Source: a virus
Taxonomy: Duplodnaviria > Heunggongvirae > Uroviricota > Caudoviricetes
Virus record (IMG/VR): IMGVR_UViG_2740892282_000009
Length of the DNA stretch: 22,170 bases
Reading direction: 5' to 3' (one strand)
The position numbers were made by a program, and so were the translations under genes. Shown piece by piece: positions 1 to 19,869 of this stretch; within the stretch, counting starts at the first letter, position 1, and every line of letters begins with the position of its first letter. A model generated the notes under the pieces. It had not been told where the DNA came from. It was given only the letters and a program-made list of their open reading frames with translations, and searched no databases.

Positions 1-267
1 TGTTCAGCAGATTATCAGGCGCAACTGAAGCGGCATAATCTGCGTGGAAGTATGAGCGCAAAAGGTTGCTGCTACGATAATGCCTGCGTGGAAAGCTTCT
101 TTCATTCGCTGAAAGTGGAATGTATCCATGGAGAACACTTTATCAGCCGGGAAATAATGCGGGCAACGGTGTTTAATTATATCGAATGTGATTACAATCG
201 GTGGCGGCGGCACAGTTGGTGTGGCGGCCTCAGTCCGGAACAATTTGAAAACCAGAACCTCGCTTAG
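1..267 (+). CDS. insF: IS3 transposase OrfB, C-terminal fragment (5' truncated by window edge)
   Basis: Translation [88 protein letters not shown] matches, from memory, the end of E. coli IS3 InsF (integrase-core C-terminus). Stop TAG at 265-267. Confidence 0.8.
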
Positions 268-297
268 GCCTGTGTCCATATTACGTGGGTAGGATCA
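259..297. repeat. IS3 right terminal inverted repeat (about 39 bp)
   Basis: CTCGCTTAGGCCTGTGTCCATATTACGTGGGTAGGATCA ends with the TGATC-type terminus (as reverse complement) typical of IS3 ends. Exact IR length is recalled, not computed. Confidence 0.6.
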
Positions 298-2662
298 TAT
301 TGTCCGTGCCGAATACGTCAAAGAATCCCATCTTAACCTTATATTCACCATCAACGATGTTTGGTACTGAGTCGAATTCAGGTGCATAACTGGTAAACAA
401 TCGGCTGGTATTCCCGTTAACAATACTGATAACAGCACCAGCATAATCACGTTCAGTTGATTGTGTCCATGAAGCAAATAAATTACCAAAACCACCAGTG
501 AATGATACGCCTTGTACTAATCCACATTGTTTGTTTTCTACTGTAATTTTCACTTCCTGTGAATACGTTCCATCATTAAATCCCTGTGCGATAATACCAA
601 TAGTTGGTTTACGTACTTTTAAACGATTCATCGCAAGAGCGAAATTGAAACTATTGCTTTGCGTATAGAAAGTATCTACAAGGGTTGTACCGTTATAGAT
701 TTTAATGATGTAGTACTTGAAGTAATCAGAATACGAGCGACCATTAACGATTAAGTTCTTCTGTGAATCCCATGCAATATTAAAATCAGGTGCATCGGTG
801 ATTAACGCTGATTCAGTACGATTTGCCAGTACTACGCCAGTTACGGAAGGTAAAGCAAAGTTATAAGTCGGTACTATTCCGTTAAGGGTTACACGCTGCG
901 ATACCAAACCAAGATTGTTATACGCCTCTACCCCAAAGTCATAGCTTGCAGTGTCAGACAATCCAAACAGTTCATAAGTGGTTTTCTGTACGCCCGTTTG
1001 CCCCGCATATGTCCATGTACTGGTACTGTGAAGTTTGTAGTAAACATAATAGCCCCGTAGGTACGGATCTTCTGAAACCGTCCAGGTCAAATCAATGATA
1101 GAACCGCTGGTAGTGTTGCCCTTGCGTACTGCCTGTAGATTCGTTGGAGCCTTCACAGTAAGTTCAGGGAAGTTAATCACACCACCCGGCGACCATACGC
1201 CCGGATCTACACCGTCATACATCTGGTCAGGGGCTTCCACGCAGGTTAGCGTTACATAGCCTACGTTCTCTTGATCGGTGGCAATGTCCTTGTTCAGTAC
1301 TTTAAATTTACCTGAGATATTCAATTCGGCATTACTGACATTGATAGCATCCCATACCTTGAGATCCCATCCTTCGGATGTGGTAAAGCTGATAGTACGT
1401 AAAGCATACTTTGCCTTGAGTACATCAACGTTTGCCATCTTAGCGATGACATCAGGATCATATGACCAACTGTAATCACGACTAAGTGCGATTACCTGCC
1501 CGTCTTGCCGAACGGCTTCATCAACGGTTATATCTGAAGGTATGCGTACTACATCCGTGGTGTACATTGATTCAGGGTTAGTGAATTTGCAGTCAACCAC
1601 ATTGAAGTAGTCAGTACCGCCACTGGTTGAAATCTGTACAGCACCAACCATATTAGATTCATTAAATGACGCTACTGAAACTGTTTTACGGTCTGTCGTA
1701 ATACAAATCTGTCCGGCGTGAACATACATAATACCGCCAAATGATTGACAGATATTTTCTATGTTTTCTTTATAGCTTGATTGGTAACTGATAGCACCAT
1801 TGGCGTAGTACTCGAAAGCATCACAATAGGCTGCCGTTTCTTTGAAGATATCAAGATTAATTAATGCGGGATCAATACCCATCCCATACGTCGTATTTGT
1901 TAAGTAATCATAGATAATTGACGGTGGATTACTACTTGCTTTAATACTGCCATCCACTAAATCAAAAATACGTTGCCCTTTCATTTCAACGGTCAAAGCA
2001 AACTGATCATTAACGAGAATGTTATTTTCTAATGATTTCTGTGTTTTCTTGATAACCGTACTGATACTAACAATGCCTTTACCAAGAAATTTATTAGTCC
2101 ATTTTGGCCCTGCATATCCAGTAGCTAACGTTTTAGTACTGGTATAATCACCACCAAAGCGTACTTCTAGTTGTAGAAATTCCTGATACTTTTCCGCAAT
2201 ACTGGCTTTCGGTACTATGCCATCTTGTGTAATCGGTACGGCTAAAACTGGTTCGTTATCGATATAGATCTGTAGAATATTCTTTTCAGTACCCGCATAT
2301 GCTACAGCCTGTTCTGAAAAGAGATATTGAGAATCACTATTCGGTACGTTGTACCATGACACAATTGAACCTGTCAGTACGTATGAACCGCCTGATACCC
2401 CGTTTTTATGTGGCAACTCACCGCCATAGATAACAGGTAATCCCGTAGTTGGGGAAGTACTTCGGCTTAATGAGTCCGACACATCCCCATAACCGCTTAC
2501 GCCGATTTGCCCCAACATTGATGTAGCCACCAGTGAAGCAGCTCCCGCAGCAGCCCCCCAGCCAATCGCGGCTAATGCTGTACCGCCAGTAAAGTACACG
2601 GCTGCCGCGACAATTACCGCAGTTATGATAGCTCCAAAGAAGCCCCCTAAACTCTTACCCAT
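281..2662 (-). CDS. Lambda J-like central tail fibre / host-specificity protein, C-terminally truncated by the IS3 insertion
   Basis: 793-aa ORF with a J-like (phage-tail_3 type) region (...YGMGIDPALINLDIFKETAAYCD...) and a fibronectin-III-like segment (...TWTVSEDPYLRGYYVYYKL...). The N-terminus is Gly/Ala-rich and hydrophobic. The last codons (ILPT) and the stop are read from the IS3 inverted repeat. Start ATG at 2662 lies behind AAGGA. Confidence 0.7.
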   Translation of the reverse strand: MGKSLGGFFGAIITAVIVAAAVYFTGGTALAAIGWGAAAGAASLVATSMLGQIGVSGYGDVSDSLSRSTSPTTGLPVIYGGELPHKNGVSGGSYVLTGSIVSWYNVPNSDSQYLFSEQAVAYAGTEKNILQIYIDNEPVLAVPITQDGIVPKASIAEKYQEFLQLEVRFGGDYTSTKTLATGYAGPKWTNKFLGKGIVSISTVIKKTQKSLENNILVNDQFALTVEMKGQRIFDLVDGSIKASSNPPSIIYDYLTNTTYGMGIDPALINLDIFKETAAYCDAFEYYANGAISYQSSYKENIENICQSFGGIMYVHAGQICITTDRKTVSVASFNESNMVGAVQISTSGGTDYFNVVDCKFTNPESMYTTDVVRIPSDITVDEAVRQDGQVIALSRDYSWSYDPDVIAKMANVDVLKAKYALRTISFTTSEGWDLKVWDAINVSNAELNISGKFKVLNKDIATDQENVGYVTLTCVEAPDQMYDGVDPGVWSPGGVINFPELTVKAPTNLQAVRKGNTTSGSIIDLTWTVSEDPYLRGYYVYYKLHSTSTWTYAGQTGVQKTTYELFGLSDTASYDFGVEAYNNLGLVSQRVTLNGIVPTYNFALPSVTGVVLANRTESALITDAPDFNIAWDSQKNLIVNGRSYSDYFKYYIIKIYNGTTLVDTFYTQSNSFNFALAMNRLKVRKPTIGIIAQGFNDGTYSQEVKITVENKQCGLVQGVSFTGGFGNLFASWTQSTERDYAGAVISIVNGNTSRLFTSYAPEFDSVPNIVDGEYKVKMGFFDVFGTDNMILPT

Positions 2663-4236: not shown

Positions 4237-4271
4237 TGTAACCTCAACAATCCTTGTTTCGAGTATTTATT

Positions 4272-4892
4272 ATGATTGACTTCTTAAACCACATATTGCC
4301 TATATTATCTGCTATTGCATTCCCTATAGTTGTTGTAGTAGTAACTCTTTATATAGTCTACAGAAGCGGAAGTACATCCATCATTGCTAATAAGATATGG
4401 GGGATATTCATTGGTGAGAAAAATTTCTTCAATGAAGAATTAGCATTAAAAGAAAAGGTTGAACATGATGTTGCTAAATTCAACTTTAAAGTAAATCTGA
4501 AAACCAGGAATCTCACTCAAATTGAACAATTTTATAAATTTCTGGAAAAATTCGATCTGGATATAGATAACTTCAAAGGACTTCGTGACTGCTACTTGCC
4601 CTCATTGCAGAAGGTCAAAAAAACATCTAAAAGTGAAATGTTTAATATTGGCCTGGTTGTCTTGTTAATAGGCGGTTTTTTGTTACCTATCTTCATTGGC
4701 GTGTTTATATTTAGAGACATTTCTACTTTCGACGGGGGGAAATTAGCAAATCTATTCTTTTATACGTTTTTAATTTCTGCCAGTACAGTTTTAAGTTTTA
4801 GTCAGTTACTTAGAAAGATTAAGTCAATCAGAACCCGTAAATTGATCTATAAAAAGAAATGCGAATATCTTGCAAACAGAAAGCCCATGTAG
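4272..4892 (+). CDS. Integral membrane protein (about 206 aa), opposite-strand moron inside the tail module
   Basis: The ORF track gives 4254-4892 with a TTG start; the first ATG is at 4272. Hydrophobic N-terminal helix (ILPILSAIAFPIVVVVVTLYIVY) and a second hydrophobic pair (IGLVVLLIGGFLLPIFIGVFIF). Very AT-rich, without the GTAC excess of the neighbours. Confidence 0.55.
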   Translation: MIDFLNHILPILSAIAFPIVVVVVTLYIVYRSGSTSIIANKIWGIFIGEKNFFNEELALKEKVEHDVAKFNFKVNLKTRNLTQIEQFYKFLEKFDLDIDNFKGLRDCYLPSLQKVKKTSKSEMFNIGLVVLLIGGFLLPIFIGVFIFRDISTFDGGKLANLFFYTFLISASTVLSFSQLLRKIKSIRTRKLIYKKKCEYLANRKPM

Positions 4893-10568: not shown

Positions 10569-12942
<2,374 letters not shown>

Positions 12943-12956
12943 TTATTGAGATCACT

Positions 12957-13520
12957 ATGTCAGACCGCAACAATGATTTTTCTTTGCTGGTAAAGTTACT
13001 GAATAGCTTCCTAAAGAATGAAGATATAAAGAGGCGTCTGTATTCCTTCGTCAGTAATGAAACTAATGATTGGGAAAAATGGCTACAAATTGAATTTGAG
13101 CACTTCCTTAACAAAAAAAGAAAATATGAAGTTAAACGTGAAGTTACAGCTTTTCTTGACCCTAATAATTTCCCTGCAAGCAAGCTCTCAAAAATCGATA
13201 TAATAATGAGAGAAAAAGATACCCTTTTTGAAGACTATATCTTTATTGAGCTGAAATGTACTAAGCGTTCATCTGCCTTAAAAAGAGGATTGCAAGCAGA
13301 CCATTTGAAACTCAACTCTATACAAGAATGTAAGTATCCGATGCGAAATTCTTTCTGTGTTGGTTTTCATTTATATTGCTCATCATCTGTAGTTGAAGAA
13401 ATGGACAAGTATGTAACCGATACCCTTAAAGGATCTCATGCAGTATTCAAATTATGCGAATGTCCGACAAACCGTCATTGCGATTGTGCGTTAAATGAAA
13501 TAGGTGTTGTACTTTGCTAA
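12957..13520 (+). CDS. Small PD-(D/E)xK-like nuclease-fold protein with Cys-rich C-terminus (187 aa)
   Basis: Motif ...EKWLQIEFEH ... KIDIIMRE ... (16 aa) ... YIFIELKCTKR fits a D ... E-x-K nuclease core. C-terminus CECPTNRHCDC. Divergent from the TerS gene (44-bp gap). AT-rich, low GTAC count. Confidence 0.45.
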   Translation: MSDRNNDFSLLVKLLNSFLKNEDIKRRLYSFVSNETNDWEKWLQIEFEHFLNKKRKYEVKREVTAFLDPNNFPASKLSKIDIIMREKDTLFEDYIFIELKCTKRSSALKRGLQADHLKLNSIQECKYPMRNSFCVGFHLYCSSSVVEEMDKYVTDTLKGSHAVFKLCECPTNRHCDCALNEIGVVLC

Positions 13521-13699: not shown

Positions 13700-14854
13700 A
13701 TGCACATTGTAGCTCATAAAGGAATGACCAAATTGGTAAAGAATGTATATTTCGATGAATCAGGATTCACTGGTAATAACTTACTTTCAAAAGATCAGCC
13801 TTTTTTTAGTTACGCAGCAGTCGTGACTGATGATGAGGAAAGTAAACAGTTTGTTGATTATATAATAAACAAGTACTCGATCGCAGCCGAAGAGCTAAAA
13901 GGTAGCACTCTCGTAAATAGCAAGAGATTTCAACCAGCCGTAGATGAAATACTTAATCATTTCCGTGGTCGTATGCGTGTGGTTGTAAACGAAAAAAAAT
14001 ATGCCCTCTCAGGAAAATTCTTCGAATATATTTTTGAGCCAGTATTAGCAGCTAAAAGCTCAATTTTTTACAACCTTAAATTTCACCTATTCATCTCAAA
14101 TATAATGTATTTTTCTTTAATAGCTAAGGATGAATATTCAGAACTATTACATTCGCGATTTGAAGATTTTTCACGAGGTAAAATATTGGTTAATAGTTTT
14201 ATCGAACCAGTTGTTGGTTCTAAAAATTCTGAAATTATGATGGACATTCATGATTTCGCCAAGAATAACATCTCTATAATTGAAGAAGAATATGAAGGCC
14301 TTGAGGGTACTGGGATTGATAAGTGGTTATTAGATTTGACAACGACTTCTCTTTATAATCTCCTGTGCGATATGAGTAGTAAGTTTGGTACATTGAGAGC
14401 TATATGCGACAGCTCAAAACCATTAATTACTCATCAGGACTCATTCAATGAGATGATAGGCAATGATGAGATTGTGTTCGAGACTTTTCATGATAAAAAA
14501 ATCCCGATCACATTTAAGCTATCTGAGCCAATGATTCTTTCTGATTCTAAAGTCACGCATGGTATACAAATTGCGGATGTGGTAGCTGCGGCTAGCATTT
14601 ATGTCCTTAACAAGAAAAAATCGAAAGAAAAATATCATTCTAAATGGCTAAATCATTTTGAAGATGAGATTTTTTATTGGCAGTGCTGTGTTGTTCCCAC
14701 ACCAGAAAACCTTGACCCTAAAAATGTTAACAACCATTTAAATAGATATATTTTGCAAGAAATTGCAGAGCGAAGCAGAAACTCAACTCCTGTTTTAGAT
14801 GATATTGAGAAGGATATAATAAGAATTTCCAGAACATTAGCCATGCTACGTTGA
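13700..14854 (+). CDS. DUF3800-like protein (384-aa ORF; probable start at ATG 13724, 376 aa)
   Basis: N-terminal VYFDESGFTG matches the DESG-type signature I associate with DUF3800 (function unknown). AAAGGA immediately precedes ATG 13724. Followed by a strong hairpin terminator. Confidence 0.5.
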   Translation: MHIVAHKGMTKLVKNVYFDESGFTGNNLLSKDQPFFSYAAVVTDDEESKQFVDYIINKYSIAAEELKGSTLVNSKRFQPAVDEILNHFRGRMRVVVNEKKYALSGKFFEYIFEPVLAAKSSIFYNLKFHLFISNIMYFSLIAKDEYSELLHSRFEDFSRGKILVNSFIEPVVGSKNSEIMMDIHDFAKNNISIIEEEYEGLEGTGIDKWLLDLTTTSLYNLLCDMSSKFGTLRAICDSSKPLITHQDSFNEMIGNDEIVFETFHDKKIPITFKLSEPMILSDSKVTHGIQIADVVAAASIYVLNKKKSKEKYHSKWLNHFEDEIFYWQCCVVPTPENLDPKNVNNHLNRYILQEIAERSRNSTPVLDDIEKDIIRISRTLAMLR

Positions 14855-14864
14855 AATATATATT

Positions 14865-14894
14865 CTCATGCTGTTTTATCAATAACAGCATGAG
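14865..14894. terminator. Rho-independent terminator candidate (perfect 11-bp stem, 8-nt loop)
   Basis: CTCATGCTGTT-ttatcaat-AACAGCATGAG, followed by an A/T-rich tract, 11 bp after the stop at 14852-14854. Confidence 0.55.
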
Positions 14895-14936
14895 GGTATT
14901 ATATATTATTTAATTTTTCATCATGCCACATACACT

Positions 14937-15024
14937 TAATAATTTAATAATTTAATAATTTAATAATTTAATAATTTAATAATTTAATAATTTAATAATT
15001 TAATAATTTAATAATTTAATAATT
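14937..15024. repeat. Perfect tandem repeat (TAATAATT) x 11
   Basis: Eleven identical head-to-tail 8-bp units, 88 bp, no interruptions; sits between convergent gene ends (14854 and 15047). Confidence 0.95.
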
Positions 15025-15046
15025 CTATCTCTTTGATTTTTGTTTA

Positions 15047-15319
15047 TTATCTATATTGATGCATTTTTTTAATTCTTTCCTCTCGTATATGGCATGTAGT
15101 ACTGCCATTGTCCACCTGATAGATCGGATTGTAGGTGCGGCCACAATCACTCTGGAACTGAGGAAGGTAGTACTTCACCCCGTTACGTGTACCTGTATCA
15201 AACAGTACTATTATAGCTTTGTTATCAACGTTACCGACCAAGGCTTTATCCATGAATGAATGATGTACGCTGCCGCAGCCTGTGAGCAGTACTACCAACA
15301 TGACGATTAGTATTTTCAT
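15047..15319 (-). CDS. Lipoprotein (about 90 aa)
   Basis: The ORF track starts at 15355, but the likely start is ATG 15319 (AGGGA 8-9 nt upstream), giving the signal peptide MKILIVMLVVLLTGC with a lipobox (LTGC). Confidence 0.6.
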   Translation of the reverse strand: MKILIVMLVVLLTGCGSVHHSFMDKALVGNVDNKAIIVLFDTGTRNGVKYYLPQFQSDCGRTYNPIYQVDNGSTTCHIREERIKKMHQYR

Positions 15320-15329
15320 TGTTATATCC

Positions 15330-15839
15330 CTATAGAAGTTGTTCGCATTGTTCAAAGCGGATTGGCCTGTACTCTCCCTGTACTGCCCATATGCCCGACT
15401 CTCGTAAAATCCTGTGATTTCGGTTGCTGCTGACTTGTACGATCACCTTGTCGCAGTACTGCATGATGTTCTTAATGAGTACCGGGAAGATCAACCGCTC
15501 TATGTATTCCTCAGTGAACCGTCTATTTAGTCGAACTAAGTCGTAACCGTCCGTTAGCAGCGGTTCAGCAGCCATGTACCGTATGAATGGTAGATCTTCA
15601 TAGCGTGTACCTGTGCCAGTACTGAGCACGCACAACACCCCCTTTTCTTTGAACCATGCGGCTTTGCCCTGAATCATTCTTAACTGGTTCTGATAGACCA
15701 CGTGACGAATGTATTCACTTTCCTTTCCTGCCCCCATCAGTACCCGGCAACCGTTTATCAGTACACGGGTTTCCAGCTCTACGCCGAGTAACATACCGTC
15801 CAAAGACGTAATAGGAACTGCCCAATGTTCGAGTTTCAT
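15330..15839 (-). CDS. Short EAL-domain-like protein (169 aa), probably degenerate or truncated
   Basis: N-terminal WAVPITSLDGMLLGVELETRV resembles the start of EAL domains (YQPI...G.EALLRW); C-terminal CDKVIVQ...AVQGEYRPIRFEQ resembles the VAEGVE...QGY...P end. About 80 aa shorter than a canonical EAL domain. Region is higher in GC. Confidence 0.4.
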   Translation of the reverse strand: MKLEHWAVPITSLDGMLLGVELETRVLINGCRVLMGAGKESEYIRHVVYQNQLRMIQGKAAWFKEKGVLCVLSTGTGTRYEDLPFIRYMAAEPLLTDGYDLVRLNRRFTEEYIERLIFPVLIKNIMQYCDKVIVQVSSNRNHRILRESGIWAVQGEYRPIRFEQCEQLL

Positions 15840-16020
15840 GTTGATCTCTCAGTTGTCATAACTGATTGATAATTGATCTGCCTTGACTATCAGTTAACTC
15901 ATTATCGATCGGTATAGCCTTTCCTACCATTTTTAGTGGTTAGTGATTTTCACGGCTGGATCTGTGCGAAATGTGATGCAACACTGTATAAATAACCAGT
16001 ATTCATGTGGAGGGCATATC

Positions 16021-16332
16021 ATGGGCAAGAATGGTTTTGATCCGGCAATCAAACACGGGGTTCAGCAGTTTGAGCATTTAGGCCAATGGGCTAAGGTCTG
16101 CTATTGGGGATACAGTCTTGATGAGTTTTCATATGGGGATCGTGTTTTCTTCCAGAACCAGCAAGGTACATACTGGTTAGGCACGATTGAGCGTGATTGC
16201 TTCGTGTTCATACTGGAAACGCCGCTAAGTTCAGTACTGGAAGGCTTGCATTATCTGAGTACTGAGAATGCCGTCTATAAGCAGCATGAAGAAGATGGTT
16301 GGTTCTCTGGGCAGGGAGAATTACCGTTTTGA
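16021..16332 (+). CDS. Hypothetical protein (about 103 aa)
   Basis: The ORF track starts at 15943; ATG 16021 is preceded by GGAGGG. No recognisable motif. Confidence 0.35.
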   Translation: MGKNGFDPAIKHGVQQFEHLGQWAKVCYWGYSLDEFSYGDRVFFQNQQGTYWLGTIERDCFVFILETPLSSVLEGLHYLSTENAVYKQHEEDGWFSGQGELPF

Positions 16333-16432
16333 TAGCACTTCCACCAATCGCCCAAACAAACCTACCCAAATGCGAAAGGTGGAAGTACTACAATTATATC
16401 TTTTTGCATCAAAAATATAACCAAAACTTTGT

Positions 16433-17224
16433 TCATTTATCCCAAAGCGTCATAAGTTTACTCTTAATCTCATCCGTTATTGCTGAGTGATTCGACTTAT
16501 AGATGATTTTTAGTGCTTCAACGTTGTCGCCATTCTTGAATACTCTTCGCATTGAAGATGCCTTTGTTCTTGCAGTACTTTCCTTCCATTCTGGATGGTC
16601 AGTTACCATCTTTTCAACAAGATCAGTTGTGTTCATACCACTTTCAACATACTGATAGTACTCAATAAATGTCTGCATTCCTATTGTCTGTAGATCCCGG
16701 ATAGTGTTTGAATCTGGCTTCACCGTGATCTCTTCCTTTGAACGTTCAGTGTCTGGATCAATAAATTCAATGATGTCTGTTACACGTGGATCGTTAAGTA
16801 ATAAATTGCTGATTCTTAAAGTGTAACCATTCTGGTGCTCATTATAAAAACCATATTCCTTCACTAATTCATGTGGTATGGATACAGCATAACGAATTGA
16901 GAAATCATGGTTATATATTACGGCAATGAGCTCATCGAATTGGTTCAGATCATAATTTCTGATAATCCCAAGAATTAATGATTTGTTTTTTAAATTATTC
17001 TTACGAGACTTAATCTGAATTTTTCGATCATCAATCGTTGTAGCGTCATACCCTTTAGTACTAGGTGCAGCCAGTACCATTTGCATCTTATCCGCAACCA
17101 GCCATTCAGTGTACTCACTGATAGGATTGTTTCTGGTTCTGATAACCTCTCGTCGTTCTAACTCATCAAGCGTCAACTGATTCAGTTGCATCAATTCGAC
17201 GTTACTCAATTGTGATAAATCCAT
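16433..17224 (-). CDS. Hypothetical protein (263 aa), translationally coupled partner of the HNH nuclease
   Basis: Its ATG (17224-17222) abuts the stop of the upstream gene (TAA 17227-17225). Possible degenerate nuclease-like segment (GYDATTIDDRKIQIKSRK); otherwise unrecognised. Confidence 0.4.
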   Translation of the reverse strand: MDLSQLSNVELMQLNQLTLDELERREVIRTRNNPISEYTEWLVADKMQMVLAAPSTKGYDATTIDDRKIQIKSRKNNLKNKSLILGIIRNYDLNQFDELIAVIYNHDFSIRYAVSIPHELVKEYGFYNEHQNGYTLRISNLLLNDPRVTDIIEFIDPDTERSKEEITVKPDSNTIRDLQTIGMQTFIEYYQYVESGMNTTDLVEKMVTDHPEWKESTARTKASSMRRVFKNGDNVEALKIIYKSNHSAITDEIKSKLMTLWDK

Positions 17225-17953
17225 TTACTCGCTCCAAAAGGTCATTTTCTCTTTCAAGTCTGCAATTGAAAGTACTTTGCTCCCACGATGTACCATTGCA
17301 TGGCAATTTGGACATAATGGGACCATATCTGTTACGGGGTTGACCACATAGTTTTCCCCAATCGTATGAAGCGGCTTGATGTGATGTACATGAATGAATC
17401 CACGGCCATGTGTACCATAGACCTTCTCAAAATCGAAACCACAGCATTTACAGGTAGTACCGTGATGTTGGATGCAGGCTTGTCTGGCCTTTGGATCGCG
17501 TTCGTAGTAGTTCACTGTTACTTGAGTCTTTGCACCTTCAACAAAACTCTCTCCTGAAGGAATTTCATCAGGGAATGGATTAGGTAAGAAGTCTGCATAC
17601 CAAACAACGCCTTCTTTACGCAGATATCGCTTGTTTAATTTACGCTCAAAATCCTTGATAACTGCAATTTCAGGGTTATCCGGGTGTTCTGCGAAAACCA
17701 TATTGAAGGTGTAAAGTTCGTAGCCTTCATGGACTAACCTGACGTGTTCCAGTGCCTGGGTGTATCCCAGTTGTTTTTTGTTGTTTGAGTTGTACTCCCA
17801 ACGCTCTCGAAGAATGACTGACCGCTCTTGTTCACTCTCAACATCCCATGACCCAAAGATGACCATCTTCTTTTCATGGTTAACAAATGACCAACTCCAC
17901 GTCCAGTTACTGCAAGTAGCTCCGTGCGACTGGATGAATTGCTTCCGGTTCAT
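17225..17953 (-). CDS. McrA-like HNH nuclease with an unassigned N-terminal domain (242 aa)
   Basis: C-terminal HNH signature YERDPKARQACIQHHGTTCKCCGFDF...GFIHVHHIKPL...MVPLCPNCHAMVH, compared with E. coli McrA from memory. The Trp-rich N-terminal 150 aa (SNWTWSWSFVNHEKKMVIFGSWD...) may be a modified-base reader (EVE/SRA-like); this is a guess. Confidence 0.65.
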   Translation of the reverse strand: MNRKQFIQSHGATCSNWTWSWSFVNHEKKMVIFGSWDVESEQERSVILRERWEYNSNNKKQLGYTQALEHVRLVHEGYELYTFNMVFAEHPDNPEIAVIKDFERKLNKRYLRKEGVVWYADFLPNPFPDEIPSGESFVEGAKTQVTVNYYERDPKARQACIQHHGTTCKCCGFDFEKVYGTHGRGFIHVHHIKPLHTIGENYVVNPVTDMVPLCPNCHAMVHRGSKVLSIADLKEKMTFWSE

Positions 17954-18989: not shown

Positions 18990-19869
18990 CTATTTAACAC
19001 TACCATCATTCATAACCCATTTTTTCTTGCCCGACTGAAAATCCTCGACTATAGCTTTAATTTGTTCTGAAAAATCTATAATGGATGTACTAGCTATAGG
19101 TTCTCGATAAACGTAATCACAATGGTATTCTGTAATTTTAAATCGCACCTTACTATCTAAACCCTCGAGCCAACCATCATTGAATTTTTCAAAATATTCA
19201 CCAGGGCCATATTTCAGTTCTTTACTCAAACTGAAAATCCTGTTTGGTATATCATGTATAGTATATTTCACATTGTTTTGAACATCATTGATGAAGACCT
19301 CATTGTTCATCTTTCCTTTAAATATATTTTGGAAATCATCTTCTTTATAGTCGCTCTGAGAGTTAAACCATGCACCATCAACACGCACATTAAAATTTTT
19401 AATTTCTGGTAATGTCCGTGCAATTATATTCATATGAATTGTTTTTAACAATGGCTCACCATCTTCAGTAATCCAATCGGACTCTTGCTGACCACGTATA
19501 ACAAGCAACTGTATATTGTGCTGTTCAGCTTTTATCTTTGCACCACTCTGATATCCTGTCCGTGTAGCATAAATTAGCTTAAGACCTGGGATGTCTGAAG
19601 TTTTACCAATATATGCATCAATTTTTTTCAATAGATACTGGTGTTGAATAATCTTTACACTCTATCACTGATCTATAGATATTACCCCCTAACTCAAATT
19701 CCCAATAGATATCAAATTCCCTTTCAATACCTGAACGATCTTTAATCTTTTTATTCTTCTCAATGTTAATATTATTGAGGCTTGGTATATTCTCAGCTGC
19801 AATAAGTGACCGCTGGATATCCCGTACTAGTTCTTCATATTCCTTGCCTGAATTGTACATATGAATCAA
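18990..19869 (-). pseudogene. Mrr-like (PD-(D/E)xK, restriction-endonuclease-type) nuclease gene split by a frameshift in a 7-nt homopolymer
   Basis: The upstream ORF (19618-19869) carries EFDIYWEF...VIECKDY; the downstream ORF (18990-19631) continues with KLIYATRTGYQSGA, matching the Mrr catalytic-domain pattern as I recall it. The two frames overlap in the T7 run at 19622-19628 (A7 on the coding strand); the downstream frame has only a TTG start. Removing one nucleotide gives a continuous reading frame of about 295 aa. Confidence 0.55.

Follow-up and report, generated by a model that had tools for sequence, protein, structure and literature searches.

The closest described relatives of the protein considered here are STM1697 of Salmonella Typhimurium (PDB 5hxg) and YdiV (also RflP or STM1344; 3tlq and 4es4), both of which bind FlhD and neither of which hydrolyses or binds cyclic di-GMP (c-di-GMP) (PMC5622320). 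Eleven STM1697 residues lie at the FlhD interface (V115, L116, L136, V147, F160, K167, L172, L173, K175, H176 and Y180), and the combined substitutions F160A/L173A and L172A/L173A/H176A abolish FlhD binding and the effect on motility, while the key interface residues of YdiV differ from those of STM1697 (PMC5622320). For phages, a 2023 review of c-di-GMP components on mobile elements lists no more than a GGDEF protein and a riboswitch (PMC10333796). Here we describe a gene in a stretch of 22,170 nucleotides from a virus of the class Caudoviricetes (IMG/VR record IMGVR_UViG_2740892282_000009; the whole stretch is referred to below as the window). The gene, at 15330..15839 on the minus strand, encodes an internally shortened, 169-amino-acid (aa) EAL-like protein of the STM1697/YdiV clade that is predicted to be catalytically inactive. 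Its homology, its loss of catalytic residues and its prophage setting are all well supported, and identify it as a minimised, prophage-borne relative of STM1697 and YdiV.

An internally shortened EAL-like protein

A reading of this DNA from its letters alone (the sequence-only reading) had assigned the protein to the EAL family, and this homology was borne out though it is weak: the Pfam EAL model (PF00563) gave no match to the 169-aa protein at E ≤ 1, whereas sequence, profile and fold matches to STM1697 recover it. The same Pfam model matches 21 of 33 aligned relatives (best E 1.6e-23), and the NCBIfam PdeH model matches residues 115–168 at the C-terminus only (E 1.2e-5). In a phmmer search of PDB sequences, the only real match was STM1697 (E 1.8e-16), in two blocks (query 6–77 to STM1697 6–80, and query 90–169 to STM1697 142–223); YdiV is more distant and was not reached by this single-sequence search. 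A profile search of 1.84 billion representative proteins returned 61 clusters only, a few of them short forms (181–193 aa) and the others 219–245-aa stand-alone EAL-like proteins, including STM1697 (cluster P0020), and the family profile matched STM1697 best (3e-82), followed by YdiV (8e-43) and then by true phosphodiesterases such as YahA/PdeL. The AlphaFold2 (AF2) model built with the 33-sequence alignment reached a predicted local distance difference test (pLDDT) score of 90.5 and a predicted TM-score (pTM) of 0.85. When this model was compared with the PDB using Foldseek, 5hxg_A ranked first (E 4.9e-14, TMq 0.76), followed by YdiV and then by canonical EAL domains; there were 72 PDB matches at E ≤ 0.001, and the top 50 of the 72 were all EAL domains, of which the modelled protein has a reduced fold. 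That this protein belongs to the STM1697/YdiV clade, as an EAL-like domain standing alone, is near certain. Its C-terminal half also matches the unannotated family phrog_32988 (229 positions, E 3e-5), so PHROGs contains phage-associated but undescribed EAL-like proteins.

The shortening lies inside the protein. M1 aligns to M1 of STM1697 and the stop-to-stop reading frame opens just three codons upstream of the start (at 15848), so the N-terminus is complete and the start is not miscalled. The sequence-only reading had put the protein at about 80 residues short with the terminal EAL landmarks retained. The landmarks are indeed present and the middle is removed, as the two-block STM1697 match, the alignment and the fold all show, and the protein is indeed short, but by fewer residues than proposed (66 relative to the 235 aa of STM1697 and about 70 relative to a typical EAL domain). 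In the alignment to STM1697, the shortfall takes the form of two internal deletions of about 50 residues in total, one spanning approximately STM1697 residues 85–96 (the helix after the N-I-D strand) and the other approximately residues 105–141 (a helix and the WLGDLG strand, equivalent to the DDFG motif). Internal shortening is common to the whole clade. The relatives make up a graded series: the W-L-D-D-L-G motif is kept by a 224-aa relative (P0017) and by the 181–193-aa forms, and is lost as well in the 169-aa subgroup found in E. coli and Scandinavium.

The catalytic and metal-binding set of EAL domains comprises the Glu of ExLxR, an Asn, ExxE, the DD pair of DDFG, a Lys, the Glu of EGVE and a Gln. 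Read against near-canonical members of the same alignment (e.g. P0028), the only such positions kept are E21 and R25 of ExLxR and Q154, while the Asn has become S73, the DD pair is deleted, the Lys has become R103 and the EGVE Glu has become Q135. Because most catalytic and metal-binding positions are lost, it is near certain from the alignment that the protein is catalytically inactive and cannot be a normal phosphodiesterase, as the sequence-only reading had anticipated. The protein therefore shares with the canonical EAL phosphodiesterases (PdeH/YhjH, PdeL/YahA and RocR) its fold family, the N-terminal ExLxR hairpin and the C-terminal QG strand, but has lost most metal and substrate residues, two helices and one barrel strand, and the Pfam EAL model is blind to it. 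STM1697, its top match by sequence and by fold, is likewise a stand-alone EAL-like domain with degenerate catalytic residues. In contrast to the 169-aa protein, STM1697 is full length with an intact barrel, including the second deleted segment with its three FlhD contacts; the 169-aa protein is also distinguished by being prophage-borne, by having a translationally coupled lipoprotein gene downstream and by being known from sequence and model. YdiV, the second-best match by fold and profile, belongs to the same clade of inactive stand-alone EAL-like FlhD binders, but is full length and chromosomal.

For unsaturated pairs, the ratio of nonsynonymous to synonymous substitution rates (dN/dS) is 0.13–0.28 for the EAL-like gene and 0.30–0.36 for the lipoprotein gene. 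The EAL-like gene occupies a slot between the serine recombinase with accessory genes and the terminase genes, and this slot is kept in prophages of seven genera (Escherichia, Scandinavium, Klebsiella, Kosakonia, Lelliottia, Pseudescherichia and Pantoea), with the EAL-like reading frame intact in all lineages. The low dN/dS and the common slot, together with the raised guanine–cytosine content overall (GC) and at third codon positions (GC3) and the density of GTAC described below, argue that this is a live gene of the phage under purifying selection. A mispredicted start or a truncated pseudogene is ruled out by the M1 alignment, the upstream in-frame stop and dN/dS. Related forms also occur in Enterobacterales chromosomes, at sites with no prophage or lipoprotein nearby: a short form of 193 aa (P0015; L015/L016 6001–6582) lies between rimO and bssR, and the 224-aa intermediate form (P0017; L014 929–1603) adjoins CNNM/CorC-family, ytfJ-like and inositol-phosphatase genes. 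These uncharacterised proteins belong to the short-form clade and share the first deletion and a portion of the second, but differ from the 169-aa protein in lying outside prophages, in having no lipoprotein partner and in retaining the WxDxxG strand. The phage gene may have come from such loci, or they may have received it.

Among 50,697 phage records and 72,556 plasmids, no close homologue was found; these collections held only full-length STM1697-like genes at 27–35% identity, one of them on a questionable 2.2-kb fragment labelled ‘Salmonella phage’. No viral structure in BFVD matched the protein model, and searches of the full-text literature turned up no EAL-like anti-FlhDC protein reported from a phage. 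The size series 235, 224, approximately 185 and 169 aa constitutes a natural deletion experiment on the EAL barrel, indicating how much of the barrel is removable under continued selection and helping to define the minimal protein-binding module.

FlhD as the candidate partner

The PDB numbering reproduces all residue identities named in PMC5622320, and the mapping of interface residues is therefore secure. Of the 11 FlhD-contact positions, eight are present in the 169-aa protein (four identical, three conservative and one changed) and three are deleted; the FlhD-binding helices are kept. Both mutationally validated hot spots are identical (F160 as F108 and L173 as L121), as are K175 (K123) and Y180 (Y128), while K167, L172 and V147 are conservatively replaced by R115, V120 and L95, and H176 is changed to N124. 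Among variants from motile genera, R115, K123 and Y128 are kept in all those of Escherichia, Scandinavium, Lelliottia, Kosakonia and Pseudescherichia except one near-identical E. coli cluster (P0001), in which, as in a divergent Pantoea variant, K123 is replaced by N. In the Klebsiella pneumoniae variant, the three residues are replaced by S, Q and C. This pattern fits an FlhD-binding surface maintained where FlhD exists, although the contrast comes from a single lineage, Klebsiella.

We propose that this protein most likely acts in the manner of STM1697 and YdiV, by binding a protein and not a nucleotide. The likeliest partner would be FlhD, a subunit of FlhD4C2, the master activator of the flagellar genes, contacted via the helix pair equivalent to STM1697 residues 158–180; through this binding, lysogens would express their class II flagellar genes less and be less motile. 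The EAL-like gene would be an accessory, lysogenic-conversion gene in a low-GC, uncultured Enterobacteriaceae prophage lineage, placed between the serine recombinase and terminase genes, and the lipoprotein would be produced from the same transcript by coupled translation, with a separable function. Possible benefits include the loss of the receptor for flagellum-dependent phages, energy saving and lower exposure of flagellin. The sequence-only reading had suggested a YdiV-like logic for this protein, which agrees with STM1697 and then YdiV being its nearest characterised relatives; by analogy with them, an effect on motility may be expected. We infer that the protein binds FlhD, that motility is affected and that lysogens express the gene, and place the probability that the 169-aa protein binds FlhD of FlhD4C2 at roughly 0.45. 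If it does, it would be the first EAL-like regulator of the anti-FlhD4C2 type to be found on a phage, and the prophage would control host motility via the master regulator itself and not via transcription or c-di-GMP levels. The practical value would be modest, as the gene is rare (one of 5426 complete E. coli genomes). A more specific history, in which a temperate-phage lineage took up an STM1697-type gene from a host and reduced it to the minimum that binds FlhD, with which lysogens shut down flagellar synthesis, is rather unlikely. Were it true, the receptor of flagellotropic phages would be removed and flagellin exposure lowered alongside a co-expressed envelope lipoprotein, and the protein would be both an anti-FlhD4C2 factor encoded by a phage and the smallest functional fold derived from an EAL domain.

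Several findings weigh against FlhD binding. Identity to STM1697 is only about 25–33%, and three of the 11 FlhD contacts (V115, L116 and L136) are deleted. A permutation test comparing the eight surviving contacts with the rest of the protein found no significant extra conservation (p = 0.11), and conservation peaks in the C-terminal AGVWAVQGEYRP instead of in the FlhD-binding helices. The confident AF2 model depends on full-length relatives in the alignment: with the 10 short-form sequences alone, pLDDT fell to 57, with residues 74–135 below 50. A variant of the EAL-like protein exists in Klebsiella pneumoniae, which is normally non-flagellate, while Serratia, Citrobacter and Enterobacter, all motile, have the lipoprotein gene in this prophage slot but lack an EAL-like gene within 5 kb of it. 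Finally, a sigma-70 promoter scan of 15840..16020, the intergenic and presumed promoter region from which the EAL-like gene and the neighbouring 103-aa gene diverge, gave nothing above the expectation from shuffled sequence.

Some of these points count in favour of a second, somewhat unlikely reading, in which the same dead EAL-like scaffold has a different partner and flagella are not its target. Candidates for such a partner include Fur with SlyD (reported partners of YdiV), a phage regulator, and the FlhDC-family activators (SetCD/AcaCD type) of other mobile elements. This reading would account for the loss of part of the FlhD interface, for FlhD contacts without significant excess conservation and for the purifying selection that persists in non-flagellate Klebsiella. 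It is also in keeping with a review in which proteins of this kind interact with various transcription factors (PMC10333796). However, both validated hot spots and most polar contacts are kept in the variants from motile hosts, the window encodes no FlhD- or FlhC-like protein or other obvious partner, and there is no positive evidence for any of the alternatives. One version of this idea, that the 169-aa protein targets the FlhDC-family activators of rival mobile elements, is highly improbable.

The coupled lipoprotein gene and the remaining alternatives

Downstream of the EAL-like gene, a gene at 15047..15319 on the minus strand encodes a predicted lipoprotein of 90 aa, recognised by a signal peptide and the lipobox LLTGC; this region reads MKILIVMLVVLLTGC|GS and fits the L-x-[GA]-C pattern. 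The family is wider than the pair and comprises 101 clusters from Enterobacterales prophages, in whose alignment the lipobox Cys is nearly invariant and the mature C59 and C76 are invariant. The protein matches phrog_1754 (function unknown). Searches of Pfam and NCBIfam returned signal-peptide-level matches only and no known phage lipoprotein family (such as Cor, Bor or Llp), searches of the PDB with both the single sequence and the profile returned no match, and PADLOC found none for the EAL-like/lipoprotein pair. At the junction of the two genes (15320..15332, minus strand), read directly from the sequence, the TAG stop of the EAL-like gene at 15332–15330 overlaps a Shine–Dalgarno-like AGGGA at 15331–15327, which agrees with the sequence-only reading that this stop sits inside the ribosome-binding site (RBS) of the lipoprotein gene. 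The gap from the stop to the lipoprotein ATG (15319) is 10 nt. Either a stop within the RBS or a TAATG overlap is also found in Klebsiella, at a second E. coli locus, and in Kosakonia and Pseudescherichia, and because this type of junction is conserved, the two genes are likely to be co-translated.

Such coupling raises the question of whether the two genes work as one functional unit, for instance in surface remodelling or superinfection exclusion, with one component in the cytoplasm and one in the envelope. In favour of this, a junction of the stop-in-RBS or overlapping kind recurs in seven genera, purifying selection acts on both genes, and both carry the phage GTAC signature at high density. 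Despite this, a single unit is decidedly unlikely, as the lipoprotein stands alone in Serratia, Citrobacter and Enterobacter prophages, and the EAL-like gene stands alone in P. vulneris NBRC 102420 and at the chromosomal sites. Moreover, one protein would be cytoplasmic and the other exported, making direct contact unlikely, and the nonsynonymous divergence (dN) between E. coli and Klebsiella (15047–15839 compared with L008 5460–6291) is 0.45 for the EAL-like gene versus 0.12 for the lipoprotein gene, a difference that suggests either a recombination breakpoint between the two or more rapid evolution of the EAL-like protein in Klebsiella. The partnership is not obligate, and an obligate two-protein system was rejected on the ground that each gene occurs alone in related prophages.

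Degenerate EAL domains can serve as c-di-GMP receptors, and the sequence-only reading had raised the option that the protein is a c-di-GMP sensor. In favour of a receptor similar to LapD or FimX, both of these proteins are among the fold matches, and E21 and R25 of ExLxR and the C-terminal Q154 remain. However, neither of the closest relatives, STM1697 and YdiV, binds c-di-GMP (PMC5622320), and the present protein has lost even more of the site, with the DDFG strand deleted and the Asn, Lys and EGVE Glu replaced, so that this option is disfavoured and a receptor function appears very remote. Scarcely credible, and largely refuted by the present data, is a functionless decaying remnant or an active phosphodiesterase with a miscalled start: the protein is unusually short and has no Pfam match, but its shortening is internal and clade-wide, its N-terminus aligns from Met1 with an in-frame stop three codons upstream, and its low dN/dS and intact frame extend across lineages.

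Prophage setting, base composition and neighbouring genes

The window is a low-GC prophage (0.379) that carries on its minus strand the genes for the small and large terminase, the portal, a protease–capsid fusion and tail proteins, with an accessory region at approximately 12.9–22 kb to the right of the structural genes. The large terminase (10569–12458, minus strand) shares no more than 35% identity with its counterpart in any INPHARED phage, and the prophage lineage therefore has no close cultured relative. The target stretch was found in one of the 5426 complete E. coli genomes, that of strain AREA_C483, where the element is located between mipA and yeaG, adjoins a large serine recombinase and is disrupted by insertion sequence (IS) elements. 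In this copy (L001), the structural genes are lost, and IS3, IS5 and ISSen4 elements and a group II intron are inserted. The left end of the window (1–315) also matches an IS3 element at 98% identity. The proposed location of the EAL-like gene in a mobile element is thus upheld by its prophage contexts, which also led us to reject ordinary host chromosome as the location of the GC-rich patch described next.

Two compositional claims of the sequence-only reading, that approximately 15330–16330 is richer in GC than the rest of the window and that it nonetheless shares the backbone excess of GTAC, both held. The GC of 15330–16332 is 0.457 versus 0.379 for the window, making it the most GC-rich 1 kb; among 1003-nt windows (standard deviation 0.032), only 0.24% are as high, with the maximum of 0.461 starting at 15351. 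Shorter patches elsewhere in the window reach a GC of 0.50. Of the three genes here, the EAL-like gene has the highest GC (0.478), followed by the divergent 103-aa gene (0.462) and the lipoprotein gene (0.414). The GC3 of the EAL-like gene (0.54) is host-like, versus 0.26–0.37 for the structural genes, and both its GC (0.44–0.49) and its GC3 (0.41–0.57) exceed those of the local prophage in every lineage, indicating that the GC patch is an old feature of the module. The raised GC3 fits capture of the gene from an enterobacterial chromosome, although selection for host-like codons or for expression in the lysogen is possibly responsible instead.

GTAC occurs 212 times in the window, versus 76 expected from base composition (a 2.8-fold excess) and 141 from a Markov model, and 13 times in the patch (15330–16332) versus 3.8 expected. 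The EAL-like and lipoprotein genes, with observed/expected ratios of 5.2 and 6.1, respectively, are among the densest genes of the window. As this high density is absent from neighbours such as the DUF3800 gene (0.83), it argues for a long residence of both genes in the phage lineage. In addition, GCGC (2 occurrences versus 23–29 expected) and CTAG (15 versus 47–76) are strongly depleted in the window. The combined GTAC, GCGC and CTAG signature is also seen in related prophages from five other genera (loci L002–L013), while the E. coli host flanks are without the GTAC signature (observed/expected 0.36–0.59), as are the accessory genes DUF3800, 12957–13520, 4254–4892 and 18990–19631, which look like recent imports. 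A modification or recognition motif is one guess as to the origin of the signature.

Divergent from the EAL-like gene, a gene on the plus strand (16021..16332) encodes a 103-aa protein that matches phrog_2100 (E 2.1e-10); searches of Pfam, NCBIfam and the PDB with this protein returned no match. It accompanies the EAL-like/lipoprotein pair at the same position in E. coli, Scandinavium, Klebsiella and Lelliottia, and a divergent 109-aa open reading frame in Pantoea is probably its counterpart. An Rfam scan of 14700–16600 yielded nothing real. On the other side of the pair, the DUF3800 gene (13700–14854, plus strand; phrog_12991, E 8.5e-119) faces the lipoprotein operon in convergent orientation, and its low GC (0.342) and lack of GTAC enrichment suggest that it is probably a later insertion. 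A terminator scan located a hairpin with T-runs on both strands at 14860..14899, likely a bidirectional terminator common to the lipoprotein operon and the DUF3800 gene. Between this hairpin and the lipoprotein stop, Tandem Repeats Finder (TRF) identified a perfect tandem repeat with an 8-nt unit, TTAATAAT, in the operon's 3′ region (14936..15024). There are 11.1 copies in the window versus 7 in the 99.4%-identical AREA_C483 prophage, indicating that copy number changes fast. Further into the same accessory region, two genes lie side by side on the minus strand (16433–17224 and 17225–17953). One product matches the PADLOC model of a type II methyl-directed restriction enzyme/DUF6998 (E 1.3e-62), and the other is an HNH endonuclease that weakly matches type IV methyl-directed restriction. 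This pair is likely a defence module and is commoner in E. coli, at approximately 83% identity.

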